From NCBI GenBank assembly GCA_964350165.1, contig CAYGJA010000001.1, positions 4,947-68,946 of the forward strand: DNA of 64,000 nt, written 5' to 3'. This document shows, piece after piece, positions 8,826 through 30,986 of the stretch. A program made the translations under genes and the position numbers. A model generated the notes under the pieces. It saw nothing but the letters and a program-made list of their open reading frames with translations. It ran no database searches and was not told the DNA's origin. Within the stretch, counting starts at the first letter, position 1. Each line of letters opens with the position of its first letter. Source of the stretch: an uncultured Candidatus Saccharibacteria bacterium. GTDB taxonomy: Bacteria; Patescibacteriota; Minisyncoccia; Phycocordibacterales; UBA1006.

Positions 8826-8832
8826 AGCCCTC

Positions 8833-13429: not shown

Positions 13430-14113
13430 ATGACTTTCATGAATACCGTATTAACACCCAAACAAAAAGAAGTTCTCGACCTGATTGTTAATTTTTCTAG
13501 AAAAAATAATGCGACTACGCCTACTTTGGATTGGTTACGTCAAGAAATTGGTTGCAAATCAATCAACAGCGTTGTTAAACATCTAAAAGCCCTGGAAACA
13601 AAAGGCGTCATTGCTCGTCGCAAACACGCCAAAGAAAACAACATTGTCATCTTGGAACAAAAAAGCATAAGGGGCCCTCAGATGATATCGGTGCCAGTTA
13701 TTGCTTCGGTTGGTTGTGATAATATGAGCGTCTTTGCCCAAGAAAACACTGACGAATATCTAACAGTAGACGCTAGCCTGATCGGCAAAAAACGCCTCGT
13801 GGCCATTCGAGCCGAGGGCGACAGCATGAATGATGCTGGCGTAGAAAACGGAGATTATGCCCTGGTAGAGATTCTCGAGAATGGCGAACCAATCAAAAAT
13901 GGCGAAATCGTAACGGCCATCATTGACGGTATGGCAGTACTCAAAAGATACGAAAAAAAAGACGGTGTAGTTATCTTGTACCCACAATCCCGAAACCCTC
14001 AACACAAACCTATCGTTGTTAATCAATCCTTCCGAATTATAGGTCGACTATGGCAAATGATCCCAGGGTTTGCCGAGGATGATTTTACCTTTGTCCCCGA
14101 GCCTAGTTTTTAA
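13430..14113 (+). CDS. lexA: LexA repressor (wHTH + S24 peptidase)
   Basis: 227 aa. The N-terminal wHTH is TPKQKEVLDLI...LKALETKGVIAR. The C-terminus has a Ser-Lys dyad (AEGDSMNDAG; MAVLKRYEKKDG). Confidence 0.85.
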   Translation: MTFMNTVLTPKQKEVLDLIVNFSRKNNATTPTLDWLRQEIGCKSINSVVKHLKALETKGVIARRKHAKENNIVILEQKSIRGPQMISVPVIASVGCDNMSVFAQENTDEYLTVDASLIGKKRLVAIRAEGDSMNDAGVENGDYALVEILENGEPIKNGEIVTAIIDGMAVLKRYEKKDGVVILYPQSRNPQHKPIVVNQSFRIIGRLWQMIPGFAEDDFTFVPEPSF

Positions 14114-15787: not shown

Positions 15788-15807
15788 TTCTACAAATTAA
15801 ATAACAT

Positions 15808-15816
15808 TGCTATTAT
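15808..15816 (+). promoter_or_regulatory. Extended -10 (TGcTATTAT) 6 nt upstream of the GIY-YIG ATG
   Basis: TGCTATTAT-cacagg-ATG(15823). Confidence 0.45.
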
Positions 15817-15822
15817 CACAGG

Positions 15823-16092
15823 ATGAGCAATGACAGCACCGAAACCAAATACAGTGTGTATATCTTACGTTGCGCAGACGGCACCCTCTATACCGGTTCG
15901 ACTAACGACCTGACCAAGCGCCTCCACGCACACAATCACACTAAACAAGGAGCAAAATACACCCGAGGCAGAAGGCCGGTCCAATTGCTCTATTCTAAAT
16001 CTTTCTCAGACATTGGGTTAGCTCTAAGAAGAGAGGCGGAAATCAAAAAAATGAGCCGGAAAGAAAAACTCAATCTCATTAATTCACGATAA
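15823..16092 (+). CDS. GIY-YIG domain protein (UPF0213/YhbQ-like)
   Basis: 89 aa starting YSVYILRCADGTLYTGSTNDLTKRLHAHN. Confidence 0.7.
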   Translation: MSNDSTETKYSVYILRCADGTLYTGSTNDLTKRLHAHNHTKQGAKYTRGRRPVQLLYSKSFSDIGLALRREAEIKKMSRKEKLNLINSR

Positions 16093-16162
16093 TTAGTTGT
16101 GTATTAGGCTCTTTTCCAGTATCTTGGGCCCAGCGGGTGTCCGTTTGCCCCAAACCTATTTC

Positions 16163-17641
16163 ATGTCGCAAAAAGATAAAGTAGTAATCCGTTTTGACGA
16201 AGTGTTCTTTGAGCACAGCACCAACGCACCAGTTCTAAATGAGGCGAGTTTTACTGTGAGAGAAGGATCAAAAATAACTCTCATGGGGCAAAACGGGGCG
16301 GGTAAAAGTACTTTGTTTGGACTTATTACCGGCAAACTCAAGCCAGAGCTCGGAGAAATTCATGTCGACCAAGGGCTCTCGATTGCAATATCAAAGCAAG
16401 TCATTCCTCGCGATCAACTAGAGCTTTCCGTTCGGGAATTTTTCGAAAAAAGCTTTACCGAAAAAGTATACGCCATTGATCCAAAAATCGACGAAGTACT
16501 CGAAGCCGTTAACCTCAAAGCTGACAAAGAAAAACAAATCAAAGATTTTTCTGGTGGTCAGCAGGCAAGACTACTCCTTGCTTCGGCTCTGATTCAAAAA
16601 CCAGACATCCTGCTCCTGGATGAACCCACCAACAATCTAGACAAGGCAGGCATTGATCATCTCAAAAAATTTCTTCAAGATTTCAAAAACACAGTAATTG
16701 TTATTTCCCATGATGCAGATTTTCTAAACTCATTCACCGAAGGTGTTTTGTATCTGAATGTCTACACAAAAAAAATCGAACAATATGTAGGCAACTACAT
16801 CAAGGTAGTCCGAGATATCACTGCTCAAATAGAAAAAGAAAAGCGAAAAAATGCCCAGTATGAAAAGCATATTCAAGAAAAGAAAGACAAGGCTAATTTT
16901 TTCGCCAACAAGGGTGGTCGCATGCGTGTCCTGGCCCGTCGTATGCGCGAAAGTGCCGAAGAGGCCGAAGAAGCAAAGGTTGACGTTCGCCGCGATGACA
17001 AAACCATCCGTGAATTCGAAATAGGAATAAAAGAAAATCACATTGGCGACATACTCCGCATCGAATCGCTTTCTATTATGGGCAAAAATGGCCCCGTAGA
17101 TAGAATGGCGAATGTTTCTCTTCGCAAAGATCAACACTTGCTTCTCACTGGGCCCAACGGTATTGGCAAAAGCACCCTTCTAGAGAGCCTAGCTCAGGGG
17201 ACCAACCCCGGTGCGATTATTAGCCCTGGTGTTCGAGTTGGTTATTACCGTCAGGATTTTTCTACACTCAATTTTGAATCAACGGTTTACCAAACCCTTC
17301 GCGAAGCCCTTAACAAAGACGACGAGCATGTTTTGCGTAGCGTAGCGGCAGGATTCCTTCTTACCAAAGAAGTCATTGGTTCAAAAATCGGCACCTTGTC
17401 TGAAGGACAAAAAGGTCTGGTGGCTTTTGCCCAGCTGACCCTATTACAACCAACCCTGCTCATTCTTGACGAACCCACCAACCACATTAATTTTCGTCAT
17501 CTACCAGTCATTGCCAAAGCGCTAGATAATTACAAGGGAGCCATGGTTCTGGTTTCTCACGTACCAGAATTTGTAAGCCAAATCAGAATAGACGAAACCC
17601 TAGACCTAGAAAAACTAAAGCCAGTTCCCAAAAACAAGTAG
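16163..17641 (+). CDS. ABC-F family ATPase (tandem ABC domains, no TM)
   Basis: Two Walker A motifs (GQNGAGKST and GPNGIGKST), two signature motifs (LSGGQQAR and LSEGQKG), and an interdomain linker. The start is reset to the ATG at 16163 (MSQKDK). Confidence 0.85.
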   Translation: MSQKDKVVIRFDEVFFEHSTNAPVLNEASFTVREGSKITLMGQNGAGKSTLFGLITGKLKPELGEIHVDQGLSIAISKQVIPRDQLELSVREFFEKSFTEKVYAIDPKIDEVLEAVNLKADKEKQIKDFSGGQQARLLLASALIQKPDILLLDEPTNNLDKAGIDHLKKFLQDFKNTVIVISHDADFLNSFTEGVLYLNVYTKKIEQYVGNYIKVVRDITAQIEKEKRKNAQYEKHIQEKKDKANFFANKGGRMRVLARRMRESAEEAEEAKVDVRRDDKTIREFEIGIKENHIGDILRIESLSIMGKNGPVDRMANVSLRKDQHLLLTGPNGIGKSTLLESLAQGTNPGAIISPGVRVGYYRQDFSTLNFESTVYQTLREALNKDDEHVLRSVAAGFLLTKEVIGSKIGTLSEGQKGLVAFAQLTLLQPTLLILDEPTNHINFRHLPVIAKALDNYKGAMVLVSHVPEFVSQIRIDETLDLEKLKPVPKNK

Positions 17642-17707
17642 CCTGGTTGCTATTTGACAAATAAAGAACTATATTGTGAATCTTAATTAACTACACAAGT
17701 ATTATAT

Positions 17708-18232
17708 ATGGGCGATTTTAAACGAGGCGGTTTTGGAGGAGGAAATGGTGGTGGACGAAGACCCCAAGGAGGGGGTGGCTACCGAGGTGGTGGAGATAGG
17801 GGAGGCAACCGAGGGGGCGGAAGCTTTGGTGGTGGTAGGAGCGGAGGTGGAGACCGAGAAATGCACAAAGCCACTTGTTCTGGCTGTGGAGATTCTTGTG
17901 AGGTTCCATTCCGACCCAATGGCAAGAAGCCGATTTTTTGTAATAACTGCTTTGGAGATCAGAAAAACGACGGACCACGACGACCAGAACGACGTGATTT
18001 CGACTCAAAACCATCCTACGGTCGCAGAGACGACCGACCAGCACCCAAAACACCTGGTAGCAACGAGCTACTGGATATCAAGCGCAAGATGGACAGCATT
18101 GGCAAAAAGCTAGACACCATGGTGGACTTGCTTGGCAAAATTGCCCAAACCCAAGGACTCAAGATTCAAAAACACGAATTATCTGAGACAGTCAAAAAAC
18201 TATATCCCGAAGGAGCTATCCACGAAGAATAG
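17708..18232 (+). CDS. RGG/Gly-Arg-rich protein with a CxxC...CxxC zinc ribbon
   Basis: 174 aa. The N-terminal 45 residues are GG/RGG repeats, followed by CSGCGDSC-x14-CNNC and a basic region. Confidence 0.5.
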   Translation: MGDFKRGGFGGGNGGGRRPQGGGGYRGGGDRGGNRGGGSFGGGRSGGGDREMHKATCSGCGDSCEVPFRPNGKKPIFCNNCFGDQKNDGPRRPERRDFDSKPSYGRRDDRPAPKTPGSNELLDIKRKMDSIGKKLDTMVDLLGKIAQTQGLKIQKHELSETVKKLYPEGAIHEE

Positions 18233-18240
18233 CCCTGTAA

Positions 18241-18266
18241 GAACCACTTTTAAAAAAGTGGTTCTT
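18241..18266 (+). terminator. Palindromic hairpin after the 17708..18232 gene
   Basis: GAACCACTTTT-aaaa-AAGTGGTTC. The T-run after it is weak. Confidence 0.4.
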
Positions 18267-18304
18267 ACATTGCACGAGGAACCTTCTGGTATACTGCCAG
18301 GACC

Positions 18305-19978
18305 ATGACACAAGCAGAAGCCCTCCAAATCCTGAAAATGGGCCACAACGTATTCCTGACCGGACAACCGGGAGCAGGAAAAACCTATCTCCTCAATCAA
18401 TACATCGATATTCTCAAAAAACACAAAATCGAAGTAGCCGTGACCGCTTCGACTGGTATTGCCGCTACCCACATCGGTGGTACCACTATCCACTCCTGGT
18501 CTGGAATCGGCATCAAACAAAACCTGAATGCCAGACAGCTCGATGATTTGCTGGATCGGGAATATCTAGTTAAAAGAATCAGCAAAACCGAAGTGCTCAT
18601 CATCGATGAGGTTTCCATGCTGGATGCTGTCATGCTCGACGACATTAACAGCATTTGCAAAATCATGCGTCGAAGTGAAGAACCCTTTGGCGGACTTCAG
18701 GTGGTACTGGTTGGAGATTTTTTTCAGTTGCCACCCGTAAACAGAACCGGGGAGCCGATACCACCAGCCTATGCCTCGAGGGCTTGGCAAGAAGCACGTA
18801 TGGCTATTTGTTATCTATCAGAACAGTATCGACAAAAAGACGGGGTGCTCAATACCATCCTCAAGCAAATCCGTGAAAACAATGTCGAACAAGATATGTA
18901 TGACGAATTACTACGGACCACCAGTCGCACTTTTGATGATGGAATCGAGCCAGTACGGCTGTTCACCCATAATGCCGACGTAGACCAACTGAACAATAGC
19001 CGGCTAGCCGAACTCGATACCGAAATCAAGACTTTTGGTATGAGTAGCAAAGGAAAAGATAATCATGTGGAACGACTTATCAAATCCTGCCTGTCGCCAG
19101 AACATCTCCAACTAAGAGAAGGTGCCGTTGTAATGTGCACCAAAAATAACTTTGAACTGGGCTACGTCAATGGAACCATGGGCAAAATAATCGCCTTTGA
19201 TTCCAAAACAAAATTCCCAATTATCGAAACCACCGAAGAAAAAAGATTCACCATTACACCCGCCGAATGGGCAATAGAAGACAACGGCAAATTAATTGCT
19301 TCGATTGAGCAAATCCCGCTTCGTCTCGCCTGGGCAATTACCGTCCACAAAAGCCAGGGCATGAGCATCGACCGCGCCGAAATAGACTTGTCTCAAACTT
19401 TTGAATACGGCCAGGGGTATGTAGCCCTATCTCGACTGCGCGACATCAACGGGTTACGTCTTTTGGGGCTCAACGACGTAGCACTCCAGGTCAACCCCGA
19501 AATCATGGCCGCCGACAAAAAATTCTTGAAATTATCAGACGCGGCCAGGAGTAGGCTGAGTGAATTTAGCGATCAAGACCTCGAAACCAAGCACCATAGT
19601 AATATCATCGAACGTGGCGGGGTAATCAAGCCAAGCAAAAAAGAAGCAGTAGGGGAGCAGAAACCAAAAAAAACAGCGTCTCGAGAAAAAACCATGAACT
19701 TTATTTTGCAAACAAAAACTATTCCTCAGATTGCAAAAGAGAGGAGTCTAACCGAAGCAACAGTGATGAGCCATATCGAGGATCTCCTCTTAGACAACCG
19801 ACTGACCCAAAATGACATCGCATATCTGCAACCAAAGAACAAACAATTTACCAAAGGGCTTGAAAAAGTTCGCCAAGCTTTTGAGCAGACAGATAGCAAA
19901 AACCTAGGACCGGTAAAGGCTATCCTAGGTGATGCGTATGATTTCGATGAAATCAGGTTTTTTCGATTGTTTCTCTAA
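18305..19978 (+). CDS. PIF1/RecD-like ATP-dependent DNA helicase with a C-terminal HTH
   Basis: 557 aa with Walker A GQPGAGKTYLL, the PIF1-type motifs (VTASTGIAATHIGGTTIHSW; IDEVSML; VLVGDFFQLPPV), and a C-terminal helix-turn-helix. Confidence 0.75.
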   Translation: MTQAEALQILKMGHNVFLTGQPGAGKTYLLNQYIDILKKHKIEVAVTASTGIAATHIGGTTIHSWSGIGIKQNLNARQLDDLLDREYLVKRISKTEVLIIDEVSMLDAVMLDDINSICKIMRRSEEPFGGLQVVLVGDFFQLPPVNRTGEPIPPAYASRAWQEARMAICYLSEQYRQKDGVLNTILKQIRENNVEQDMYDELLRTTSRTFDDGIEPVRLFTHNADVDQLNNSRLAELDTEIKTFGMSSKGKDNHVERLIKSCLSPEHLQLREGAVVMCTKNNFELGYVNGTMGKIIAFDSKTKFPIIETTEEKRFTITPAEWAIEDNGKLIASIEQIPLRLAWAITVHKSQGMSIDRAEIDLSQTFEYGQGYVALSRLRDINGLRLLGLNDVALQVNPEIMAADKKFLKLSDAARSRLSEFSDQDLETKHHSNIIERGGVIKPSKKEAVGEQKPKKTASREKTMNFILQTKTIPQIAKERSLTEATVMSHIEDLLLDNRLTQNDIAYLQPKNKQFTKGLEKVRQAFEQTDSKNLGPVKAILGDAYDFDEIRFFRLFL

Positions 19979-19981
19979 AGA

Positions 19982-21295
19982 TTATCGGCCAGCGATAAAA
20001 GTCAGAGCCTTACCGCGCTTGTCGCTACGACCCGTACGACCAATTCGGTGTACGTAATCTTCAAAGGTGTTCGGTAGATCGTAGTTGATTACATGAGAGA
20101 CATCGTCGACATGAATACCGCGAGCAGCAACGTCGGTTGCAACCAACACACGTGCTTGTCCAGATTTGAACGAACGCAAGGCACGTTGTCGTTGTGGGTG
20201 ACTCTTGTTTCCATGAATAGATTCTGATGGAATACCAGACCGAGACAATTCATTAGAAAGTTTTTCAACGCTGTGTTTCATTGAACCAAAGATAATAACT
20301 CGAGCAAAATCTTTGTCTTGCAAAAGTTCGTTCAGAGTTTCAAATTTGTCATGATGTCCATGAACAACAACATCCTGTTCGATGCTGTTGGTAACATCTT
20401 TTTTCTTGACGGAAACCATAACCGGATTTTTCAAGAATTCATCAGCCATTTTTTTAGCTGCTGGGGTCATGGTCGCAGAGAAGAATAGAGTCTCTCGAGA
20501 ATTTGGGGTCTCAAGAATAATCTTGCGCATATCATGAATGAATCCCATGTCGAGCATGCGGTCAGCTTCGTCTAATACAACGGTGGTGATATTTTTAGGC
20601 TTAAAGTAGCCTCGATCCTGAAGGTCCATAACGCGACCCGGAGTACCAATAACAAAATGATTAGTACGTTGCAGATTTTTAATCTGTGGATGGATATTCA
20701 TACCACCAACACAAACCGTAGAAAAAATTTGCATACCAATGGTCAACTTGCGCAATTCATCGTTAATCTGAATAGCTAGTTCGCGGGTTGGAGCCAGGAT
20801 AAGCGTCTGCCGCTTGCGATCGGCTAGGGTTTTTTCGATAACTGGAATCAAAAAAGCAGCTGTTTTACCAGTACCAGTCTGAGCTAGACCAATAACGTCT
20901 TTTCCGGCATTAATTTCCGGAATGATTTGGTCCTGAATAGGACTAGGCACCGTAAAGCCCATCTGATGAATTCGGTCTACGAGCTCCTGAGAAAGATCAA
21001 AAGTTTCAAAAGTGTTTTCTGCTTCGTATACTTCTTCTTTTAGTTCAACTGGATTTTTGTTTATAAATTGGGATGGATCAAAGGTGCTTCGCTTGGCACC
21101 GCCGCGACTACGGCCACGACTGTTGCCGCCATAGCTTCCGCCACGACGATTACCGCCAGAACTGCTTCGTGAACCGCCATAGCCACCACCCGATGAAGGG
21201 CGACGAGAACGGAACGAACTGCCGTTTGACGAAGGCGAATAAGACCGCTGACGCGTAGTAGTACTACGCCCACGGTTAGTGGATGGTGATTGCAT
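19982..21295 (-). CDS. DEAD-box ATP-dependent RNA helicase with an N-terminal RGG/RS-rich extension
   Basis: 437 aa with the Q-motif, AQTGTGKTAAF, DEAD (VLDEADRMLDMGF), SAT, and HRIGRTGR. The first 70 residues are an RGG/SR repeat region. Confidence 0.85.
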   Translation of the reverse strand: MQSPSTNRGRSTTTRQRSYSPSSNGSSFRSRRPSSGGGYGGSRSSSGGNRRGGSYGGNSRGRSRGGAKRSTFDPSQFINKNPVELKEEVYEAENTFETFDLSQELVDRIHQMGFTVPSPIQDQIIPEINAGKDVIGLAQTGTGKTAAFLIPVIEKTLADRKRQTLILAPTRELAIQINDELRKLTIGMQIFSTVCVGGMNIHPQIKNLQRTNHFVIGTPGRVMDLQDRGYFKPKNITTVVLDEADRMLDMGFIHDMRKIILETPNSRETLFFSATMTPAAKKMADEFLKNPVMVSVKKKDVTNSIEQDVVVHGHHDKFETLNELLQDKDFARVIIFGSMKHSVEKLSNELSRSGIPSESIHGNKSHPQRQRALRSFKSGQARVLVATDVAARGIHVDDVSHVINYDLPNTFEDYVHRIGRTGRSDKRGKALTFIAGR

Positions 21296-21480
21296 ATAAA
21301 TATGTATTTTGTAGTTAGAAACGGATACCGTTTCGGGCTGTGCAGGTAGTAGTAATAGCAGACAAAGGTTTGAAATAATTGACTGCAGCTCAAGAGCCCT
21401 ACACGAGTATCAAAAGCTTCTTATATAATAACATAATTGTCTTTTCAAGTCAATGTAACTCGGAAAGGCCAGAAAAAGCA

Positions 21481-21489
21481 TGCTAAAAT
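21481..21489 (+). promoter_or_regulatory. Extended -10 (TGcTAAAAT) 7 nt upstream of the ATG at 21497
   Basis: TGCTAAAAT-agccacc-ATG. Confidence 0.45.
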
Positions 21490-21496
21490 AGCCACC

Positions 21497-22135
21497 ATGA
21501 AAATCCTAGCTATTTCTGGGTCTCCCTCAGCGGGGCGCAATTCCGACAGCATGTTGACGCACTTTCTTGCTGGGGCAGGATCTGTACCCGGCATCGAAAC
21601 AGAACGTGTTTTTTTGCGTGATATTCATATTGATCATTTCCATTTTGATAACCGCTTAGGCCCAATGCCCCATGAGGGAGACTTTGCTAGGCTTTGCCAA
21701 ATTATTGAAAAAGAAGCCACGGGTATTGTGATTGCTACGCCTACGTATAATTTTGGAGTACCTGCCCATCTCAAAAATTTTATTGATCGCATGCGTTTTT
21801 TTGGTCTTGATTTCAGCAAACAAAACAAAATCGGCCAGCCAGTAGGGAAATTACAACACCTCAAGGCATATTTTCTAGTATCTGGTGGCACACCCAACTG
21901 GGCTCAAAAAATACTCTTCTTTGCTTTTCCTCCTTTTTGGCTACGGGGAATTTTCCTGTACCACGGGGCCCACGTAATGGGTGCTTATTACAGCGGCGAT
22001 TTACACACCATGGAAAACAAAAAAGTATTGGCGAAATGCCATAAAGAAGGAGTCACCTATGCCAAAAAGCTCCTGGCCGGCAAACGCCATGGAATCCTGG
22101 AGCGAATCTTTTGGAGACCACCACAATCGCAATAA
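21497..22135 (+). CDS. NADPH-dependent FMN reductase-like flavoprotein
   Basis: Starts MKILAISGSPSAGRNSDSM with a flavodoxin-like fold. The start is reset from the track's 21437. Confidence 0.55.
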   Translation: MKILAISGSPSAGRNSDSMLTHFLAGAGSVPGIETERVFLRDIHIDHFHFDNRLGPMPHEGDFARLCQIIEKEATGIVIATPTYNFGVPAHLKNFIDRMRFFGLDFSKQNKIGQPVGKLQHLKAYFLVSGGTPNWAQKILFFAFPPFWLRGIFLYHGAHVMGAYYSGDLHTMENKKVLAKCHKEGVTYAKKLLAGKRHGILERIFWRPPQSQ

Positions 22136-22192
22136 AATCAGTTGTGAACAGACGGTGACTGTTTGCCCTTGTTTTTGTGGCACCATGTAGAC

Positions 22193-23467
22193 ATGAGACT
22201 ACATCGAGCTTTTATATTTTTTATGGCTGGTTTTTTGGGAGGGATTATTGTTCTGGCTGGTTTTTTGCTTGCCATCCAAATGCAGAAAAAATACTCGGCC
22301 ATTGACGCCATCCAGGAACTGGCTTCTTCGGTTACTCAAGATTTTGTAATTAATCCTTATTCTGGATTGTTTAGTCAAAATTTCGAAACCATGACCTACG
22401 AAGACACTCCTTTTGCCGGCGGGTATCTGTCACTGTCACCAAGTGGTCGCTTTATTATTTTCAACACCAGTAATCTATCTGAACCGGGAACGTTCCTGGA
22501 GCGTTTCTACTTGGCTGATCTCATGACCGGAGAGCGTAAAGAAATATCAGGCACACCATTGCGTGACTGGGATGACGACAATGTCATTCTAACGACACTG
22601 GGTAACGAATTGCAGTTATTCGACACTATAAGCCCCGACAGCCCCCTCGAAAGCTGGCAATTCAGTAGCCCTATTTATTCTGCCAAACCTTCTCCCAAAG
22701 GCGATACACTGATAGTAAATACCCAGGACGGTGTCTATACCGCTGACCGTGCCAGTGGCACCAAAAGAAAAATAATAGACGGCGGACAACATGGTGCTTA
22801 CGCTTGGCTCCAAGACAACACTCGCCTGGTTGGCTTCCGGCAAATCCCAAACACACCGGGGAACAACATTCCTATTCACGAGCCAGTTATCTGGAATAGC
22901 CAGAACGGGGAATATGATATCTTGGTTGAAAACTTTCCAACTACCACCATCAACTACGTCGAATGGATTGTGCCTGATCAAATTGCACGCATAAACACTG
23001 GTTGGGATGATGGTTCTCGTGACTATGTCGTCAACGTGCAGTCACAAAGCTATCGCTATCTCGGAGAAACATCTGGTGATGGCAGCCTTAATCATCAAAA
23101 AAATATCAAGCGACTTGGCCTTAATGTTATCGAGGGCAATTTTGGTGATTTTTCCCAGGTAATCAAAAACACAACCTATTGGGGTAATGTGGAAAAGAAA
23201 GTAGCTTTTAGTGATTCATACCGAAGGTATCAATCCCAATTGCTCGACATGGATACCGCCATCTATTTACGTCAACAGATGACAAGTAGCTATGCCGAAA
23301 CAGAAGTAGTCAAGTTAGACCTGAATACTGGCAAAGAAACCGTACTCTACAAAGTAGATGGCTGGGTGCAAAACCTAGCGGTCAGCACTGACGGCCAGGA
23401 TACTTATTGGATTATCCCTGCTGGTGACAAATTAATCATTCGCTCGATCGAATCGGTTGATTTGTAG
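22193..23467 (+). CDS. Hypothetical membrane-anchored protein, probably beta-propeller (TolB-like)
   Basis: The track start at 22163 is TTG. The ATG at 22193 gives MRLHRAFIFFMAGFLGGIIVLAGF. The rest is rich in D/G/T/Y beta-strand repeats. The last 27 nt form a direct repeat with 26688..26714. Confidence 0.45.
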   Translation: MRLHRAFIFFMAGFLGGIIVLAGFLLAIQMQKKYSAIDAIQELASSVTQDFVINPYSGLFSQNFETMTYEDTPFAGGYLSLSPSGRFIIFNTSNLSEPGTFLERFYLADLMTGERKEISGTPLRDWDDDNVILTTLGNELQLFDTISPDSPLESWQFSSPIYSAKPSPKGDTLIVNTQDGVYTADRASGTKRKIIDGGQHGAYAWLQDNTRLVGFRQIPNTPGNNIPIHEPVIWNSQNGEYDILVENFPTTTINYVEWIVPDQIARINTGWDDGSRDYVVNVQSQSYRYLGETSGDGSLNHQKNIKRLGLNVIEGNFGDFSQVIKNTTYWGNVEKKVAFSDSYRRYQSQLLDMDTAIYLRQQMTSSYAETEVVKLDLNTGKETVLYKVDGWVQNLAVSTDGQDTYWIIPAGDKLIIRSIESVDL

Positions 23468-23471
23468 AAAG
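23445..23471 (+). repeat. 27-bp direct repeat, left copy (CTCGATCGAATCGGTTGATTTGTAGAA)
   Basis: Identical to 26688..26714. It contains the palindrome TCGATCGA and forms the 3' end of the 22193..23467 gene. Confidence 0.8.
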
Positions 23472-23547
23472 AGTGCCTATTTTTTTTGAGAGATACCCAA
23501 AAGTATTGACATACGTTAATTTTATATGTATTCATTTAAAAGACATA

Positions 23548-23570
23548 AAGGGGGAGAACCCCTTTTTTTA
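23548..23570 (+). terminator. Intrinsic terminator after the 22193..23467 gene
   Basis: AGGGG-gagaa-CCCCT followed by T7. Confidence 0.55.
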
Positions 23571-23609
23571 GTTCGTTCTTTCTAAAAAAATAAAAAAAAC
23601 CGAGGCGGC

Positions 23610-26585
23610 ATGCTTGTCGTCTCACAATCGCATTTTCAAATGAAAAAAAGTATTTTTTTTCTTATGGCCACGTTCTTCCTGCAGCAACTGGCTGTGGGTC
23701 AAGGCATCGGCGACAACACTTTTTTACCGACTGCTGGCGGCCCAGAGAGAATCCAGGTGATCTCTCTAGAAGATAACCCCTTCCTGGCAGAGCACCTGAC
23801 AGCAGGGGAGCAAATATCTTATGTGGCCCTAATTAGTCCCATGAGCATTGTTTACGGGCTAGGGGCCGTAAAAGATAGGCTCTGGGTACTCCAAGGACAT
23901 CAGCAGGAAATCGCAAACCTTCTCTCTACAGAAAATGATTTCAAAAGGAGAAAAGGAGTAGAAATCCTGCTGGAAGCCATCGCAAACCCCAACGCCGATC
24001 ACGGGGTAGAGCTGGTCTTTCACTGGAAAGACACTCTTCACCAGAGATTGGGTATACAGGGAAAGGTGTATAAAGCCGCGACCTGGGAAGAGAGTGCTGT
24101 TCCAGATCGATATTTTTTTGTGCCAGGAGAAGGGCACAGCATGCCGGCCGTGCCTTACCTAGCAGAAGAAAGGGACTCCCTAATGATGGGGGCAATTGCC
24201 ACCATTGAAAGAACCCTCGAAACGGAACAAATTTTCGTTCTGTTCGAGCAAGCTGCTGACATCAGCAGTATGGTACGCCAGAAGTTCACCACGCTGAACC
24301 TGGCGGACAACCAAGGGATTCTTTTGGCAGGTGACCCGAGAGTGGCTGCCATAATGGTAACTGAGGAAATTAGCAAAATGGCATTCCTCAGCCTGACAGC
24401 AACATACCTAAGCTGGCAGGCGCAACAGCAACAAAACCTGCTGTTTCGAGGTGGTCCGGGCCGAGAAATAGTGCTTCCAAAGCTAAAGTTTCCGCAACAA
24501 CCGGCAAAAACGCCGAGGATTCCAACTCCGGAACCCCCCAAGCCACCCTCACCCTCCCCAGAACAGGCTAAAAAACTGCAGGAATGGCTCCAAAGAGCTG
24601 CTAGTGCCATCAAGACCATAGCAAAAGTCTGGGGAGATTCGGTTGCCACAGCCTACGAAATTAGGCTAGAGAAAAAAGGTCCCGACGATGACGTTTTGGT
24701 CATATCGAGCCCTACCAACCCAAAAAACTATGTCCTGGTATACCCAAGCCCAGATCAAGAGGGCATACTCAGAATTGCGAACGGTAACATGCACGGTGAT
24801 TCTGTTCGTACCAGAACAGAGCACCGACCGATTGCATACTGGGATCTGGAAGGCGATGCTCCGAGCTTGCTTCCAAACAAGGTGCTTTTACCTATGGCAC
24901 CATACCTGGCACCAACAGACAAGGAGGCGCTGGTGGAATGGCTCATGCTTCCATTTACAGAACAATTTGGGTGGAGTCAAATCTGGTACTTGGTGCGAGT
25001 AGCAGAGGAAGGAACGACGTCTCCTCAATCGGCAAAAAAAGCCTACCCTGGATACAAGGTGGTACGCTACATATTACCAGCCTCTAACCAGGTTGACCCT
25101 CTCAACGAAGAAGAGAGTGGGCATATGAAGGTTTTTAGGACGAGAATCGGCTACCAAGCCGGGCTTTTGGAACAAGGGCTAAGGCTAGCCTTGGCTAAAG
25201 CTGAAGAAGGCGATACGGAAGCCGTAGCAACCTTCCTCGCAAGTGCGAGAGAATCAGCTCCAGGCGAGGTCTTGGATCTGCTCAGTAGATACAGTCCCGA
25301 CAGCAAAGAGAGAAGGTCTCTGCGTTATGCAGCCAAGAGACTAATCCTCATGAGGGAAGGGCTGGAGAAAATAACAATTTTTCTGGAGGGGGAGGGCTCG
25401 GATATACGAGTACTCTATGAAGAGCTCCAAAGACAAAGAGAAATCCTCTACAAAGAGGAACTCCGAACGCTAAAAGAAGAGCTGGATCAACTTAAGAACA
25501 GATCGCAAAAACTCCTGGATGGAATCCGCAGAATTCAGGAAAAGGCGAAGAGAGGCAGGGCTTCTCACGAAGACATCACCGAGGCTTATCGCAAGATGGA
25601 AAGGATACTAGCGATTAGCGAAGGCCTGGAAGATGCCAGAACTGCTTTGGTCGGATTTCAGATCTGGGCAGAGGACATGCGGGGAAAGATCTACTCGGAC
25701 GACGCCGACGATGGACACATCGCGAATGAAAAAAACGAGGTGTCGAGACTTGTCCAGAAAGACCTCCAGATTGCTTGGCTACTATTGGCAAAAGCTCCAG
25801 ATGGAGAGATTGCCAACAAGGTACAAATGGCGGAGGGGTATTTTCAAAACATGCTCCAGTTCTATCATCCCAGGGAAACGATAAGCCCCGAAACACAAAA
25901 AGAACTCCGACGGTCTGCTAGCGCCATAGCAACCCTTCACAGGGAGGTAGGAAAGATGGAAACGTACCTGAACAAGGTACAAGACAGGTACTATCGTCTT
26001 CGTGGAAAGAAGTGGCAAAGCATGGTGACTGCCTTTGTCGGGAGCTATCGGCTGCTCCGAAAGTTTTCAAGTGCTTATCGAGAAATCGAAAGAATAGAAA
26101 CGCTGATTACCGGCGACCTCACTGATGAACAACAAGGCCATTGGGTGCAGATTCTGCAAGAAATACGAACGCAGCGAATCCAGCTGCTGGTCGATGAAGA
26201 AATCTTCCGGATTTCTTCAGAAATGACAGACAGGGTCCCGGAAGTCTACAGAGGAGAGCTTAAAAAATCTATAGCTCAACTACTGCTAAAAGTTTCCAAG
26301 GGAGAAATAGAATCTCCTAATGGTTACGGAAAATCCCCTTTTCACTTTGTAGAAAGGGGTACAGTAGAGGAGTTATTAACAAAGCTTCCTCATTTGCGGA
26401 CGGAAGGCGCTACGCCTGATGCCTATAAGAGATTTACAGGACAGCTTCTTGCCTTGTTGGGCAAGCAGCACAGCCTGGACGGTCTGGATCAGGCTCACCT
26501 GATTGGGCTTTCCGTCGAAATATCGACAAGATTCGATATCCATGAAGGCGTGGCAGCCATAGCCAATCCGGCGGAAAAAAAATAG
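23610..26585 (+). CDS. Large secreted protein (991 aa): signal peptide, Pro-rich linker, C-terminal coiled-coil region
   Basis: The ATG at 23610 or the ATG at 23640 (MKKSIFFLMATFFLQQLAVGQG) gives a signal peptide. There is a PTPEPPKPPSPSPEQ linker and long heptad-like stretches (ELQRQREILYKEELRTLKEELDQLKNRSQKLL). No recognisable family. Confidence 0.55.
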   Translation: MLVVSQSHFQMKKSIFFLMATFFLQQLAVGQGIGDNTFLPTAGGPERIQVISLEDNPFLAEHLTAGEQISYVALISPMSIVYGLGAVKDRLWVLQGHQQEIANLLSTENDFKRRKGVEILLEAIANPNADHGVELVFHWKDTLHQRLGIQGKVYKAATWEESAVPDRYFFVPGEGHSMPAVPYLAEERDSLMMGAIATIERTLETEQIFVLFEQAADISSMVRQKFTTLNLADNQGILLAGDPRVAAIMVTEEISKMAFLSLTATYLSWQAQQQQNLLFRGGPGREIVLPKLKFPQQPAKTPRIPTPEPPKPPSPSPEQAKKLQEWLQRAASAIKTIAKVWGDSVATAYEIRLEKKGPDDDVLVISSPTNPKNYVLVYPSPDQEGILRIANGNMHGDSVRTRTEHRPIAYWDLEGDAPSLLPNKVLLPMAPYLAPTDKEALVEWLMLPFTEQFGWSQIWYLVRVAEEGTTSPQSAKKAYPGYKVVRYILPASNQVDPLNEEESGHMKVFRTRIGYQAGLLEQGLRLALAKAEEGDTEAVATFLASARESAPGEVLDLLSRYSPDSKERRSLRYAAKRLILMREGLEKITIFLEGEGSDIRVLYEELQRQREILYKEELRTLKEELDQLKNRSQKLLDGIRRIQEKAKRGRASHEDITEAYRKMERILAISEGLEDARTALVGFQIWAEDMRGKIYSDDADDGHIANEKNEVSRLVQKDLQIAWLLLAKAPDGEIANKVQMAEGYFQNMLQFYHPRETISPETQKELRRSASAIATLHREVGKMETYLNKVQDRYYRLRGKKWQSMVTAFVGSYRLLRKFSSAYREIERIETLITGDLTDEQQGHWVQILQEIRTQRIQLLVDEEIFRISSEMTDRVPEVYRGELKKSIAQLLLKVSKGEIESPNGYGKSPFHFVERGTVEELLTKLPHLRTEGATPDAYKRFTGQLLALLGKQHSLDGLDQAHLIGLSVEISTRFDIHEGVAAIANPAEKK

Positions 26586-26605
26586 CGGTTATCTTAGCCG
26601 CACAA

Positions 26606-26640
26606 GCCTCGCAATTAATTTTGCGAGGCTACTTTTTTTT
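26606..26640 (+). terminator. Intrinsic terminator after the 991-aa gene
   Basis: GCCTCGCAA-ttaatt-TTGCGAGGC followed by T8. The paralogous hairpin at 27838 differs by compensatory changes. Confidence 0.65.
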
Positions 26641-26657
26641 GGGATACAATTACCAGT

Positions 26658-26711
26658 ATGTTTTTCTGGAAACGAGCCAAGCATTTACTCGATCGAATCG
26701 GTTGATTTGTA
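26658..26711 (+). pseudogene. Duplicated 5' fragment of the DUF45 gene (MFFWKRAK...), fused to the 27-bp repeat
   Basis: 26596..26676 duplicates 27826..27907 (terminator plus the first 7 codons of the 27890 gene). The frame then runs into the 27-bp repeat and stops. Confidence 0.55.
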
Positions 26712-26714
26712 GAA
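26688..26714 (+). repeat. 27-bp direct repeat, right copy
   Basis: Identical to 23445..23471. Confidence 0.8.
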
Positions 26715-26718
26715 CTTC

Positions 26719-27279
26719 TTATTCAAAGATTGCAGACCAATAGTCAATCAATATTTGCCGTGCGCCTTGATTTTTTAATTCTGTTTTGCCAAGCCAGGCA
26801 ACACCTTTCTCGACATCGTATTCGTCTGGATCTAAATTGCGACTAATCAATTTTGCCTCTTCGGTAGAGGGTTCTACCACAAATACATAATGTAGATCAT
26901 GCCGACCATGATCATGTGGTGCCTCTGCGCGGTACGACCAGATAACCTCGCTGAGAGTCAGAAAAGCAAAGCGCTCTAGGGGAAACTCTAGGCTGGTTTC
27001 TCGATGAAAAGAGCGCTGAGCAGCCGTGACAGCTGGTTCTCCGGCTCGTCTTCGACCGCCAATCACCCACAAACCTTCGGCTGGTTTCCGTGTGCGCATA
27101 ACCAGGCCGATTTTCTTGCTCTCTCTATCAACCAGCACCACGTCGCTATTGACCACCACCAAAGCTGAAATAGCTGCCGCGTATTCTTCATCAGTAATAC
27201 GCACGGCAGGAATATGATGATTGTCTGGGTTGTAGAACGGTGGCAAGACTGGTTCATTCATGGCTACAAAATACCGCAA
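26719..27279 (-). CDS. NUDIX hydrolase
   Basis: 186 aa with the Nudix box GGRRRAGEPAVTAAQRSFHRETSLEF. Confidence 0.7.
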   Translation of the reverse strand: MRYFVAMNEPVLPPFYNPDNHHIPAVRITDEEYAAAISALVVVNSDVVLVDRESKKIGLVMRTRKPAEGLWVIGGRRRAGEPAVTAAQRSFHRETSLEFPLERFAFLTLSEVIWSYRAEAPHDHGRHDLHYVFVVEPSTEEAKLISRNLDPDEYDVEKGVAWLGKTELKNQGARQILIDYWSAIFE

Positions 27280-27345
27280 AACATAGTAGGGAAGTATTGA
27301 CTTAATAAATTTAATGTTGCATTTTGTAGTAAATCAACAATTACC

Positions 27346-27816
27346 ATGTATGATCAGTATGTATTAATTCTGGCGCACGACAGACTGCCTGGAATGAAAT
27401 CCAGAATTCTAAAAACTGTCGAGATTTTTGCGCTACCAGGTGCAAAAACGATGTTCTACTATTGCGGGGGAGGCAAATATGCCTCAAAAGATTACCTCGA
27501 TCTTGTCAGAGAAAATGTGGAGAACCATATTCTCAACACAGGGAAAGACACCTCTACCCAGATTGAATTATTTAGATTCGCAGAGGGCCACCCGGAAGGA
27601 TTTGTCTGTTCCCATAGAAAACATGCGCCTCAAATAGAGGCGATCTTGTCTCAACATCCAGAACTAAGCAAGCTTAAGCCTGTCTATGTTCAACACGATG
27701 ACTGGAAATTAATAGATACGGCTATCGCTTTTATGGCAAACATCTTAGTAAGAAGTGGTGCTGGGAAGGCAATCTCGCTTTTAAATAAATTTCGAGCACC
27801 AGAAACTACAGTATAA
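27346..27816 (+). CDS. Hypothetical protein
   Basis: 156 aa with no recognisable motif. Confidence 0.35.
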   Translation: MYDQYVLILAHDRLPGMKSRILKTVEIFALPGAKTMFYYCGGGKYASKDYLDLVRENVENHILNTGKDTSTQIELFRFAEGHPEGFVCSHRKHAPQIEAILSQHPELSKLKPVYVQHDDWKLIDTAIAFMANILVRSGAGKAISLLNKFRAPETTV

Positions 27817-27837
27817 GCCGACCGGTCAGAGGGCCAA

Positions 27838-27872
27838 GCCTTGCAATTAATTTTGCAAGGCCTCTTTTTTTT
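27838..27872 (+). terminator. Intrinsic terminator (paralogue of 26606)
   Basis: GCCTTGCAA-ttaatt-TTGCAAGGC followed by T9. Confidence 0.65.
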
Positions 27873-27889
27873 ACTATACAATTACTCAT

Positions 27890-28288
27890 ATGTTTTTCTG
27901 GAAGCGAGCGAAACCAAAACCCAAAAGGAAACCACCACGGATGACAAAAGCGCGGCGGCACTATCTGGCACACCGGGAAACAGCCCGCACTCTGATCCAT
28001 TCCAAAGTAGAACATTGGAACCAGTTTTATCATTACCCAATCGGTCAAATCCGAACCAAAGACGTCAAAACCAGATGGGGGAGCTGTTCTTCGCTCGGGA
28101 ATCTGAACTTTAATTACAAAATCCTCTTTCTACCCGAACATTTGCAGGACTATATTGTGGTCCACGAATTATGCCATTTGCGTCAGATGAACCACGGACC
28201 CAATTTCTGGAACCTTGTAGCGGAAACAATTCCTGAATATAAAAAATGCATTGCCGAGCTTGGACGCATGCATATAAAAATCACGTAA
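27890..28288 (+). CDS. DUF45/YgjP-like zinc metallohydrolase (HExxH)
   Basis: 132 aa with TRWGSCSS...YIVVHELCHLRQMNHGPNFW. Confidence 0.65.
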   Translation: MFFWKRAKPKPKRKPPRMTKARRHYLAHRETARTLIHSKVEHWNQFYHYPIGQIRTKDVKTRWGSCSSLGNLNFNYKILFLPEHLQDYIVVHELCHLRQMNHGPNFWNLVAETIPEYKKCIAELGRMHIKIT

Positions 28289-28338
28289 AAAATGTATCAA
28301 AAAATAAAATAAAGCGACTCTTGTGGTATTATTTTTAT

Positions 28339-29100
28339 ATGAATATGCAAAAGCTCATTATCCCAGCTTTACTCATCCTGGCGCTGACCGGTATTGTCTA
28401 TCGTGCAACCAGGCCCCATCTGGAACCAGAAAAATACGTAAAACAGGAAAAAGAAGAAGCTCCCAAGGAAACCATCAGCGGCATGTTGACTTATGGGGCC
28501 GAAGTGCGCAGTTTTGTGCCTTGTGGAGTTGCCGAAAGAGACGCTGGTTGGATGACCTTTGGTGACCCCAATGTTGCCAGTGATCTGCGGCAAGTATACG
28601 AAGAAGCCACTGCCGGCAGGCTACCGTACACACCTGTTTTTGCTACCATAGTAGCCGACATTGCTGATACTCCGGCCGAAGGCTTTGGCGCAGATTATGC
28701 CACCACCTACATCGTCGAAAAAATCCAAGAAATTGACGCCAATCGCACCTGCCAAAGCAATGATATCACTCTACACACGCCACTATCGGGAAGCTCGATT
28801 CAATCGCCCCTGATTATCACCGGGGAAGCTCGTGGAACCTGGTTCTTCGAAGGAAGCATGAGCGTCGTTCTGACTAATTGGGATGGGGAAATCATTGCCG
28901 AAGGAGTCCTCCAAGCTGACGGCGAATGGATGACCGAATCATTGGTGGCCTTTTATGGTGAATTAGAATACGAAACGCCAGCCTATGGTGAACGAGGACA
29001 CTTGATTATCCAAGCCGCCAATCCGTCTGGCTTGCCAGAGCATGACAAAGCCCTCGAAATCATTGTGCAATTTTCGGAACAACAAAATGAAAATGAGTAA
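28339..29100 (+). CDS. Hypothetical secreted protein, possibly with a Gmad2-like Ig domain
   Basis: The ATG at 28339 (MNMQKLIIPALLILALTG) gives a signal peptide. The C-terminal beta-rich domain reads LIITGEARGTWFFEGSMSVVL. The track start at 28246 overlaps the upstream gene. Confidence 0.4.
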   Translation: MNMQKLIIPALLILALTGIVYRATRPHLEPEKYVKQEKEEAPKETISGMLTYGAEVRSFVPCGVAERDAGWMTFGDPNVASDLRQVYEEATAGRLPYTPVFATIVADIADTPAEGFGADYATTYIVEKIQEIDANRTCQSNDITLHTPLSGSSIQSPLIITGEARGTWFFEGSMSVVLTNWDGEIIAEGVLQADGEWMTESLVAFYGELEYETPAYGERGHLIIQAANPSGLPEHDKALEIIVQFSEQQNENE

Positions 29101-29205
29101 AACCAATTACAAAAATTGTTGTCTCAACCATCGACTCTGCTGTCTGGGCTGTTAGTTTTTTAGTAATTTTACTCTCACTAATCACCCCCGACAGGGGTTT
29201 TTATT

Positions 29206-29952
29206 ATGGACATACAACCAGACATACTTGCCCAGCGATTTCTCTTTGTTTTTGCACACCCTGACGACGAATCCTTTTATTCCGGAGGGTTGATATCAAA
29301 AATAATTCAAAGTGGCGGTCAGGCAAAAATCATAGCACTGACTAATGGCAATCAAGGAACGATCCACGGAGTCACTAACCGGAAATATTCTATCGGGGAG
29401 ACCCGGATAAATGAATTTAAAAAAGCAACCGCAATTTTAGGAACAAAAGACATATTGGTTGGACCATTTCCTGATGGGCAAGTTGATCAAATCGACAAGG
29501 CAGAGCTACTCGATTTTATTCTTCATCAAAGCCTTCTTTTTCAGCCAGATATTATTGTAACTTTTGGAGATGAGCCTTTTTACAATCACCGAGATCATAT
29601 TGAAACTGAACAGATAGTTACCGAGGCCACGATAATAATGAATCTGCATCAAAAAAATAAAACTATTTTGTGGAAAAGAGGCTACGCGCCGAATCAATTA
29701 CCCTCACATTATTCTCTAAGAAATCTACACAGAAAACGTACCCCAACCTCAAGAAAAAAATATCACGAACTAGCAACCCACCAAAAAGGAACTTTCCAGG
29801 TCACCCTAGACCCTTTGCTTATCAAAAAAAGAAAACTCGCAATTCTATGTCATCAAACCCAAAAACCAGAAATATTCGCCCTTCATCTAGGTCTTCCAGA
29901 AAACACAATTGAATACTATCAACAAATTCAAGTAAATCAGGACACATTTTGA
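29206..29952 (+). CDS. PIG-L/LmbE-family N-acetylglucosaminyl deacetylase
   Basis: 248 aa with FLFVFAHPDDESFYSGG, NHRDH, and the C-terminal LAILCHQTQ. Confidence 0.7.
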   Translation: MDIQPDILAQRFLFVFAHPDDESFYSGGLISKIIQSGGQAKIIALTNGNQGTIHGVTNRKYSIGETRINEFKKATAILGTKDILVGPFPDGQVDQIDKAELLDFILHQSLLFQPDIIVTFGDEPFYNHRDHIETEQIVTEATIIMNLHQKNKTILWKRGYAPNQLPSHYSLRNLHRKRTPTSRKKYHELATHQKGTFQVTLDPLLIKKRKLAILCHQTQKPEIFALHLGLPENTIEYYQQIQVNQDTF

Positions 29953-30020
29953 GAATTGAGGCAAACAAAGGAGATAGGGTATAGTGAGAGAACTTACAGT
30001 AACAAACCACACACATTCAT

Positions 30021-30986
30021 ATGGTCAAATCTAACACCTTTATCACAATTATTCTCGTCGCTCTGATTGCTCTTGCTGCCGGCTGGTACATAGGACAAGA
30101 AGATCTGGTAAATCTAAACAAAACAAGCGAGGAAGCTATTGAAACAGAAGAAACTCCAATTATTGTAGAAATACCAGAAAAACCAGAAATCGTACTCCCT
30201 GAATTAAATGGTCTAGAAATTAATGTCCCAGATGAAGAGGTGACGGTACAAATTAATCAAGAGGCGACCGAATCCGGCAGTACTACTTCTCTTTTTATTG
30301 GAACAACAACAGATAATGAAAACCAGACTACAAACACCGTTACCTTGGTAGACAATCAACTCACGGCAATTAATGCAGACCATTTTGTTGTGCCTTTTTT
30401 GCTAAATACTGGCGGTACTGGAACTTTTTTATATCTTGGTCTTCTGGAAAACATAAACGGAATCGTCAACCACACTCAATCGGTGTTTTTGGGTGATCGC
30501 ATTGGGTTTGAATCTGTCTTGGTGAATAACGGAGTGATTAGCGTAAAAACACTAGAACGTTATGAGGGTCAGCCCTTTAGCGCTGAGCCAGAAATCTCGA
30601 TAGCACACAATTTTGTCTTGGAAAATAATGAACTAGTGTTAATGGAAAAGTATACAAACATAGAACCTTCTGAAGTATTCTTATCAGTATCTCTTACCAC
30701 CGAAACGCTATTTCCAATCGAATTAACCGGCTCGCTTCCTCAAAACTGGTTCTTTGAAGGAGATTTTCCAATCACAATTCTTGTAGATGGGGAAAAAGCT
30801 TTTTCAACTTTTGGAGTTCGCGACGAAACCAGCACCGAAAACGCGCAACAATCTTTTACGGCCACTCTATCTCCAGAAGAGTCTCTAGACTGGACAAACA
30901 AAGAAGTCACTCTGGTGCTCGAAAAAGACAATGTTTCCGAGAACCGCTCTCTTGATGCTAGTTACAGTAGAATAATTGCGCGCTAA
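30021..30986 (+). CDS. Hypothetical membrane-anchored extracellular protein
   Basis: 321 aa with an N-terminal TM helix, an acidic linker, and a T/N-rich beta domain. Confidence 0.4.
   Translation: MVKSNTFITIILVALIALAAGWYIGQEDLVNLNKTSEEAIETEETPIIVEIPEKPEIVLPELNGLEINVPDEEVTVQINQEATESGSTTSLFIGTTTDNENQTTNTVTLVDNQLTAINADHFVVPFLLNTGGTGTFLYLGLLENINGIVNHTQSVFLGDRIGFESVLVNNGVISVKTLERYEGQPFSAEPEISIAHNFVLENNELVLMEKYTNIEPSEVFLSVSLTTETLFPIELTGSLPQNWFFEGDFPITILVDGEKAFSTFGVRDETSTENAQQSFTATLSPEESLDWTNKEVTLVLEKDNVSENRSLDASYSRIIAR

Follow-up and report, generated by a model that had tools for sequence, protein, structure and literature searches.

This study concerns a 64,000-nucleotide stretch of DNA (hereafter the window) from an uncultured Candidatus Saccharibacteria bacterium, positions 4,947 to 68,946 of contig CAYGJA010000001.1 in assembly GCA_964350165.1, and within it a module of repeats and orphan genes between geneA, which belongs to no Pfam family, and a gene for a YgjP-like (DUF45) protein. 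The module holds three genes, for a large protein of 991 amino acids, a putative, divergent NUDIX hydrolase, and a protein of 156 amino acids (hyp156), together with copies of two direct repeats. Gene order in related lineages shows all three genes to be insertions into what would be the ancestral geneA/YgjP junction. We put at somewhat better than even (roughly 0.55) the probability that the module is a non-functional scar, left when DNA of a related lineage recombined into a geneA/YgjP spot that varies among strains. The initial annotation had also read the repeats as recombination scars around inserted genes, and the present comparison supports that view; it overlooked the head-to-tail junction, the ancestry-block boundary, and the downstream loss of a lipoprotein gene that are described below.

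The elements of the locus, in their order along the window, are these (+, forward strand; −, reverse strand):

22193..23467 (+): geneA, 424 amino acids, with an N-terminal membrane or signal segment; no Pfam family; its 3′ end supplies the 27-bp repeat.
23443..23469 (+): 27-bp repeat, copy 1 (“A-end”), made of the last 25 nt of geneA including the TAG stop, then AA.
23470..23609 (+): spacer from geneA to the 991-amino acid gene, with a weak terminator-like hairpin at 23547–23566 (z-score −1.0, not significant).
23610..26585 (+): cargo 1, the 991-amino acid orphan gene; no family; likely true start at M11, 23640.
26603..26682 (+): duplicated copy W2, with a hairpin at 26606–26629 and T-run, −35 at 26621–26626, −10 at 26645–26650, and 25 nt from the start of YgjP (ATG at 26658).
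26683..26714 (+): head-to-tail junction, ATTTA (5 nt) and then copy 2 of the 27-bp repeat at 26688–26714.
26719..27261 (−): cargo 2a, putative divergent NUDIX hydrolase, 180 amino acids (Pfam); stop codon 4 nt away from the A-end repeat.
27346..27816 (+): cargo 2b, the hyp156 orphan gene, 156 amino acids; no family.
27835..27912 (+): intact copy W3, with a hairpin at 27838–27861, −10 at 27877–27882, and the YgjP ATG at 27890; homologous to the geneA-YgjP spacer of the sister genome L001.
27890..28288 (+): YgjP-like (DUF45) short metallopeptidase-domain gene, 132 amino acids (Pfam PF01863); start of ancestry block II.

The 27-mer CTCGATCGAATCGGTTGATTTGTAGAA is present exactly twice in the window, at 23443–23469 and 26688–26714, both times on the + strand and with 0 mismatches, and 0 of 100 dinucleotide-preserving shuffles contained two matches even with up to 3 mismatches permitted. 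The pair extends 9 nt leftward imperfectly (33/36 identical, 23434–23469 versus 26679–26714). Copy 1 had initially been described as the last 27 nt of geneA; the perfect second copy stands, but copy 1 consists of the last 25 nt of the gene plus 2 nt downstream. The second direct repeat is an ungapped 78-nt match between 26603–26680 and 27835–27912 that is identical at 66/78 positions (85%), with a longest exact run of ~16 nt. It is the duplication of a terminator and DUF45 start reported earlier, with its coordinates here corrected. Both repeats are far beyond chance.

Each of the 78-nt copies holds a terminator-like hairpin with a T-run, a promoter-like site (TTGCRA-18-TACAAT in both), and, as a third common element, ATGTTTTTCTGGAA at the start of the YgjP-like gene. 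The upstream hairpin, GCCTCGCAA-TTAATT-TTGCGAGGC at 26606–26629, has a predicted folding energy of −20.4 kcal/mol, and the downstream hairpin, GCCTTGCAA-TTAATT-TTGCAAGGC at 27838–27861, one of −19.6 kcal/mol; folding was equal or better in 0/200 shuffles, and eight T residues directly follow the stem. Judged from sequence only, both hairpins have the GC-containing stem-loop, the direct U-tract, and the location downstream of a stop codon that are expected of a terminator. Between the stems there is a single compensated change, C-G in one and T-A in the other. The copies differ at 12 positions, which cluster in spacers; the stems (that one pair apart), loop, T-run, −10 hexamer, and first four codons are spared. 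W2 appears to be a dead YgjP 5′ fragment and is probably the predicted terminator of the 991-amino acid gene. Its open reading frame (ORF) runs from 26658 to 26705, 15 codons reading MFFWKRAKHLLDRIG up to a TGA that lies within the 27-mer; its frame is not that of geneA. The initial annotation had likewise described a dead DUF45 fragment that reads into the repeat. The YgjP 5′ part of W2, which continues through GAGCCAAGC, is closer to L001 than is the window's own intact YgjP gene. No Rfam family was found in 23300–28400 at E ≤ 1.

If a denotes the 3′ end of geneA and y the terminator, promoter, and YgjP 5′ end, then relatives have the order a-y, and the window has a-[991]-y′-a′-[NUDIX(−), hyp156]-y-YgjP. 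TAGAA on one side and the terminator hairpin on the other delimit the slot that each of the two cargoes fills. At 26682 to 26688, y′ meets a′ head to tail, a topology beyond the reach of a simple insertion. To produce it, two copies of the locus must have been joined illegitimately, or a tandem or circular intermediate must have been involved.

Homologues of geneA are few, and genomic context could be recovered in three lineages: L001/L010 (the Logan assemblies of runs ERR3534989 and ERR3534978), L002–L007, and L008, in which geneA is 92, 54, and 51% identical, respectively. The YgjP-like gene directly follows geneA in L001/L010 and in L008. In L001, 54 nt separate the geneA stop from the YgjP ATG, and its own geneA end matches the 27-mer at 25/27 positions, ending TAACC. 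In L002–L007, a single ORF for a membrane-like protein of 85 amino acids (L002 11315–11572) stands between geneA and the YgjP-like gene, so read as an insertion that the geneA/YgjP spot took independently in that lineage. An rve-family integrase or insertion sequence (IS) gene lies 4–5 kb upstream in the same lineage. The 991-amino acid, NUDIX, and hyp156 genes were not found by tblastn in the locus of any relative in the three lineages. Adjacency of geneA and YgjP in the relatives, combined with absence of the cargo there, indicates that all three window genes are insertions. The initial annotation had supposed that either the 991-amino acid gene or the NUDIX pair was inserted, and had left to such a comparison the question of which arrangement is ancestral; in all three lineages, the one 85-amino acid ORF of L002–L007 apart, the answer is geneA-YgjP adjacency. 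Distant geneA homologues also occur in metagenome-assembled genomes of Saccharibacteria and Paceibacteria, found in a scan of genome contigs, without conserved synteny, and make it probable that the organism belongs to the Patescibacteria (CPR); a 23-mer from the geneA 3′ end had 0 matches in Joint Genome Institute (JGI) metagenome contigs.

The second line of evidence comes from ancestry. The window was compared with the sister genome gene by gene, by nucleotide identity and by identity at fourfold-degenerate sites, which gave the following blocks and landmarks:

16112–23469: block I (ABC transporter to geneA); nucleotide identity ~85%; fourfold identity 559/952 = 0.59.
~27,880–29,292: block II (YgjP, Gmad2, and the first 28 PIG-L codons); nucleotide identity 92–95%; fourfold identity 127/160 = 0.79.
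29,300 onwards: block III; nucleotide identity 55–72%; fourfold identity 214/580 = 0.37.
28289..28338 (no strand): empty lipoprotein site, a 50-nt spacer, placed by synteny of the relatives.
28339–29100 (+): Gmad2-domain protein (Pfam).
29206–29952 (+): PIG-L (Pfam).
29284..29300 (no strand): right-hand ancestry breakpoint, inside PIG-L, where identity to L001 drops from ~92% to ~55–65%.

Fourfold identity differs among blocks I–III in every pairwise Fisher test (p ≤ 4e-7). The breakpoint in PIG-L is abrupt, falling within ~15 nt around 29,292. A further 17 kb of the sister contig, compared with 35–53.6 kb of the window, is mostly 70–78% identical, which indicates that the diverged state is the baseline and that blocks I and II are more recent exchanges, made at different times. 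On these identities, the rearrangement module falls exactly between blocks I and II, and the loss of a lipoprotein gene falls inside block II.

This lipoprotein gene is present in all three lineages, where it follows YgjP on the minus strand (L001 11769–13127), encodes 447–464 amino acids, and is fast evolving; the three lineages' genes are mutually homologous. Downstream of it come Gmad2, which is not in L008, and then PIG-L. No tblastn trace of the gene was found anywhere in the window, and by synteny a lipoprotein gene of ~450 amino acids is lost from the window lineage. That it is missing inside block II fits with block II having arrived as one allele.

Two side observations concern block I. 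At its left edge, L001 has a 1187-amino acid PG_binding/fn3 gene (L001 188–3867, minus strand) between the DsbD and ABC genes, and the window at 15788–16096 is without it, which makes another large secreted-protein indel at a block boundary. In the 3′ part of the PIF1 helicase gene (19387–19886), identity to L001 dips to 0.69–0.72 within the ~85% block, and this dip may be a further small mosaic patch. Two other neighbors of geneA were assigned by Pfam:

19982–21295 (−): DEAD-box helicase.
21437–22135 (+): FMN reductase.

These observations can be brought together in one scheme. The ancestral state would be the geneA stop, a ~54-nt spacer with terminator and promoter, and then YgjP. From there the simplest route would be one illegitimate join at patchy microhomology and one homologous crossover, either as homology-facilitated illegitimate recombination (HFIR) of imported DNA or as an unequal exchange between co-resident haplotypes. 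The incoming piece that we favor would have lacked the lipoprotein gene and carried an A-end, the NUDIX and hyp156 genes, the terminator, YgjP, Gmad2, and the 5′ end of PIG-L. A homologous crossover inside PIG-L at ~29,292 would have resolved its right end. Its left end would have been ligated illegitimately into the recipient YgjP gene at +25, downstream of a resident 991-amino acid gene, fusing the first 25 nt of YgjP via 5 nt to the last 27–34 nt of geneA. The upstream hairpin would now terminate the 991-amino acid gene, the duplicated promoter would drive only the 15-codon dead ORF and perhaps a transcript antisense to the NUDIX gene, and the 27-bp repeat would have no function of its own. 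PMC6382021, citing de Vries & Wackernagel 2002 (PMC122324), documents HFIR with joins of 3–10 bp in transformable bacteria. The runs of both haplotypes have neighboring accession numbers, which suggests that both come from one sequencing series.

A single import event of this kind would explain the junction, the ancestry boundary, the PIG-L breakpoint, the lipoprotein loss, and the 15% divergence of y. The 15% difference between the 78-nt copies is at the level of between-lineage divergence, and the A-end pair (33/36) is not significantly different from it (66/78; Fisher p = 0.38). Three genes of the window could be relevant to a capacity for DNA uptake or recombination, as judged from their families, and are no proof of competence:

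694–1557 (−): DprA, a DNA-processing protein used in transformation.
13430–14113: LexA.
62461–62937: type IV pilin-like N_methyl protein.

Several observations weigh against the import scheme. The microhomology is weak: the parental sequences at the 26682/26683 join are AAGC and AATC (3/4 nt), similarity over the 17 nt before the join is patchy (9/17), and 2 mismatches adjoin the microhomology. The 27/27 core compared with 66/78 gives a borderline Fisher p of 0.034, a slightly surprising value for diverged alleles. Too few mismatches exist in the non-coding spacer to place the left edge of block II within it, and joint arrival of NUDIX-hyp156 with block II is therefore not shown. At 23470–23506, the sequence aligns marginally to the ancestral geneA-YgjP spacer (~3% of shuffles score as well); it may be a degenerate third remnant of the spacer, statistically insecure, and such a remnant would require an extra step. 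DprA is widespread in non-transformable bacteria. Finally, genomes with a single cargo (geneA-991-YgjP or geneA-NUDIX-hyp156-YgjP) were not found, so that the parental haplotypes are hypothetical, and the order of events and the direction of transfer, like transformation as the route, are only inferred.

The 991-amino acid protein, which sets this strain apart from its sister, is large, predicted to be secreted, and without a detectable relative. It has a hydrophobic signal-like segment at residues 14–30, a linker with 30% proline at residues 286–325, and an abundance of Leu, Glu, Arg, and Lys in its C-terminal half. The hydrophobic N terminus and proline-rich linker of the initial annotation are thus present, whereas its coiled coil of ~500 amino acids comes down to a helix-rich prediction: in a single-sequence AlphaFold2 model the C-terminal half is helical with a predicted local distance difference test score (pLDDT) of 40, which is unreliable. 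That the protein has no recognizable family was borne out in searches that returned only the protein itself, both a word-indexed search of 5.8 billion clustered proteins and a full HMMER scan of 1.84 billion representatives. Pfam, NCBIfam, PHROGs, the PDB, and phage records (tblastn) gave no significant match, and ORFs in alternative frames inside the gene match no family. Its GC content is slightly high (0.49, z +1.4), and its codon-usage fit (z −2.0) is the third lowest of 59 ORFs, atypical usage that fits a foreign origin. We rejected an origin of this gene from the missing 450-amino acid lipoprotein gene by divergence or relocation (BLASTP E = 0.74). A role for the protein as a surface or host-interaction factor is plausible.

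The YgjP-like gene scores 117 bits against PF01863 (cut-off 26), over profile positions 104–204 only, which marks it as a short form; it carries HELCH, a HEXXH motif, and is 94.5% identical to L001 in nucleotides and 96% in amino acids. The NUDIX gene scores 31.9 bits against PF00293 (cut-off 21.1), and its box, GRRRAGEPAVTAAQRSFHRETSL, is without the canonical REUXEE glutamates (consensus GX5EX7REUXEEXGU). Its best similarity in the PDB, to GDP-mannose mannosyl hydrolase, is weak (E = 0.002), and JGI metagenome contigs, IMG/VR viral contigs, and phage records yielded no close relatives. Neither the second NUDIX gene of the window nor the one in L008 is related to it. For hyp156, there is no homologue among 5.8 billion proteins and no family in the libraries scanned.

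A purely local origin is an unlikely alternative. Here a tandem duplication of ~110 bp, spanning the geneA 3′ end, the spacer, and the YgjP 5′ end, would have arisen by slippage or unequal sister exchange and would have been followed by separate cargo insertions; in a variant, the duplicated unit was larger and included all of the cargo, different parts of which were later lost from the two copies. In favor of a local origin are a head-to-tail junction of exactly the kind that tandem duplication creates, an A-end pair that has no mismatch as yet, as if the event were recent and within one genome, and the presence in L002–L007 of another insertion, the 85-amino acid ORF, in the geneA/YgjP spacer. 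However, a local origin requires at least three events at equivalent positions, and it leaves unexplained the coincidence of the module with an ancestry-block boundary as well as the fact that the 78-nt pair has diverged by 15% and the neighboring 27-mer has not, unless constraints on the two differ.

We think it improbable that the duplication is a selected regulatory one, kept as a terminator for the 991-amino acid gene and as a second promoter for a small peptide or for an antisense RNA to the NUDIX gene. On this account, both hairpins would be under purifying selection, with the compensatory stem change as its trace; the initial annotation had indeed taken both to be functional and to diverge under selection. 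It relied on a paired C/T and G/A stem difference, which is real. Strong folding of both hairpins, which 0/200 shuffles equaled, and the sparing of stems (one compensated pair apart), loop, T-run, −10 hexamer, and first four codons by the 12 differences are in its favor. The case for selection nevertheless rests on a single compensatory pair, both changes of which are CpG transitions in a perfect palindrome. Templated quasi-palindrome correction or two diverged alleles explain the pair equally well, so selection is not established. In addition, the small ORF is out of the geneA frame, ends in the repeat, and belongs to a single strain. A regulatory role concerns retention rather than origin and is compatible with the import scheme.

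It is quite doubtful that the module is a site-specific circular cassette, in which the 27-bp repeats would be the attL and attR of a 3.2-kb element (23470–26714) carrying the 991-amino acid gene. In that case the terminator and YgjP 5′ end would stem from an earlier imprecise excision, the recombinase would be encoded elsewhere, and the process may be shared with other arrays in the window. Perfect direct repeats do flank the 991-amino acid gene, and one of them restores the target gene's 3′ end, as is seen with integrative islands; the codon usage of the 991-amino acid gene is atypical, and two other window arrays have repeated junctions (one of tRNA-Glu 3′ ends, the other of four copies of a 38-nt repeat). 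Against a cassette, no sequence is common to the three repeat systems, searches found no homologue of the element and hence no sign of mobility, and the NUDIX-hyp156 insertion and the ancestry blocks are left unaccounted for. Moreover, Pfam detected no integrase, transposase, or other recombinase among the window ORFs scanned; most genes at 36–53 kb were covered only through their sister-genome orthologues, where present, and these have housekeeping Pfam families and include no recombinase. Several window ORFs have no Pfam match at all, and a very divergent recombinase could be among them.

A bolder form of the same idea, and to our minds a very improbable one, holds that the geneA-3′/terminator/YgjP-5′ unit could be a reusable attachment site for cassettes without an integrase of their own, stacked by a trans-acting mechanism that is undescribed in this lineage and shared with the two other arrays. 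If true, such stacking would also deliver orphan secreted proteins such as the 991-amino acid one.

The window's other two arrays are observations in their own right. The 3′ end of tRNA-Glu (54399–54471), CCGTAGGGTCAC, recurs at ~55553, 57184, 58314, and 59537, within longer repeats of 184 nt (91%), 94 nt, and 53 nt, and the whole array extends over 54399–59600. Small genes between the copies have atypical GC content and codon usage (a DUF2726 gene, several without family). This array looks like tandem small islands, and a Pfam search found no integrase there. The 38-nt repeat, CTCAAAAAAGTTCCAACTTCGCCCCAGACGGCCAACAA, occurs four times in 8740–11442 and separates single genes:

8833–9261: NUDIX.
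9647–10156 (−): Macro.
10320–11378: gene for an unknown protein of 352 amino acids.

The 38-nt array adjoins very low-GC genes (7405–8665, GC 0.30–0.32), among them one for an AbiU2-type HEPN protein, and it also adjoins a DUF2726 gene beside tRNA-Gln. From this gene content, it appears cassette-like or defense-island-like.

The least credible alternative is an assembly chimera, in which the assembler placed two strain variants of a single hotspot one after the other. The initial annotation had named assembly error as what would refute its reading, and that concern is largely answered. For run ERR3535002, a separate per-run assembly by a different pipeline gave Logan contigs that match the window at 20480–23699 (L018) and 24556–30758 (L009) with 100% identity and together cover every repeat copy and junction; with the junctions reproduced at 100% in a second assembly, assembly error is unlikely. 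The repeats are perfect over no more than 27 bp, with a longest exact run of ~16 nt in the diverged pair, and so would not mislead a de Bruijn assembler at k ≥ 31. The ERR3535002 contigs stop at 23699 and resume at 24556, both inside the 991-amino acid gene, and this gap could come from low coverage or from strain microdiversity within the gene. Although the breaks at those positions, and haplotypes in runs with neighboring accession numbers that are probably one series, are what a chimera might leave, it is hardly credible given separate-pipeline contigs identical over both junctions and all repeat copies, a 5-nt filler at the Y5′/A-end junction that is unique and in neither parent, and repeats shorter or more diverged than the usual final k-mer sizes.

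Two further candidates were rejected. An integron cassette does not fit, as there is no integrase in the ORFs scanned and the hairpin is a perfect 9-bp palindromic stem with a T-run, without a GTTRRRY core. Nor does an IS or transposon insertion, as no inverted repeat brackets either cargo, the 27- and 78-nt repeats are in swapped order, and no transposase was found in the ORFs scanned.

The scar explanation thus places the locus among known processes. It would be a base-resolved example of lineage-specific genes entering a small uncultured genome at a recurrent intergenic hotspot. Entry would have been at the edge of exchanged tracts, leaving behind duplicated fragments of terminator, promoter, and gene end. 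Such repeats are then better treated with caution, as scars and not as functional sites.

Compared with known systems, the locus shares features with several. Like tandem duplications and plasticity regions, it has a novel head-to-tail junction, accessory and orphan genes between conserved genes, and a spot that has been reused; unlike a tandem duplication, it has two units with different cargo and flanks that differ by 15%, so a simple recent duplication is insufficient. As in genomic islands at gene 3′ ends or tRNA genes, a foreign-looking gene lies between perfect direct repeats that reproduce the 3′ end of the target, in the manner of attL and attR, and a tRNA-Glu array is in the window. 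In contrast to such islands, no integrase or other recombinase gene was found in or beside the element in the ORFs scanned, and a second repeat pair lies head to tail with the first, which simple att integration does not produce. The hairpins resemble intrinsic (Rho-independent) terminators in their 9–10-bp GC-containing stem, 6-nt loop, and 8 T, immediately after a stop codon, and differ from them in that the right arm of the stem doubles as the predicted −35-like hexamer of the downstream gene.

HFIR is known from natural transformation of Acinetobacter baylyi, Streptococcus pneumoniae, and Pseudomonas stutzeri. The present case differs from those in being deduced from comparative sequence, in its microhomology of 3/4 nt, and in that the donor and recipient haplotypes were not observed. 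It resembles them in that one end of the import would be anchored by homology, with identity dropping in PIG-L at ~29,292 and fourfold identity from 0.79 to 0.37, and the other end may have been joined at a few bases of microhomology. Also like HFIR, foreign genes would have been carried in, short duplicated or truncated flanks were left, and DprA is encoded in the window. No new mechanism is needed, and the locus would be an instance of a known process.

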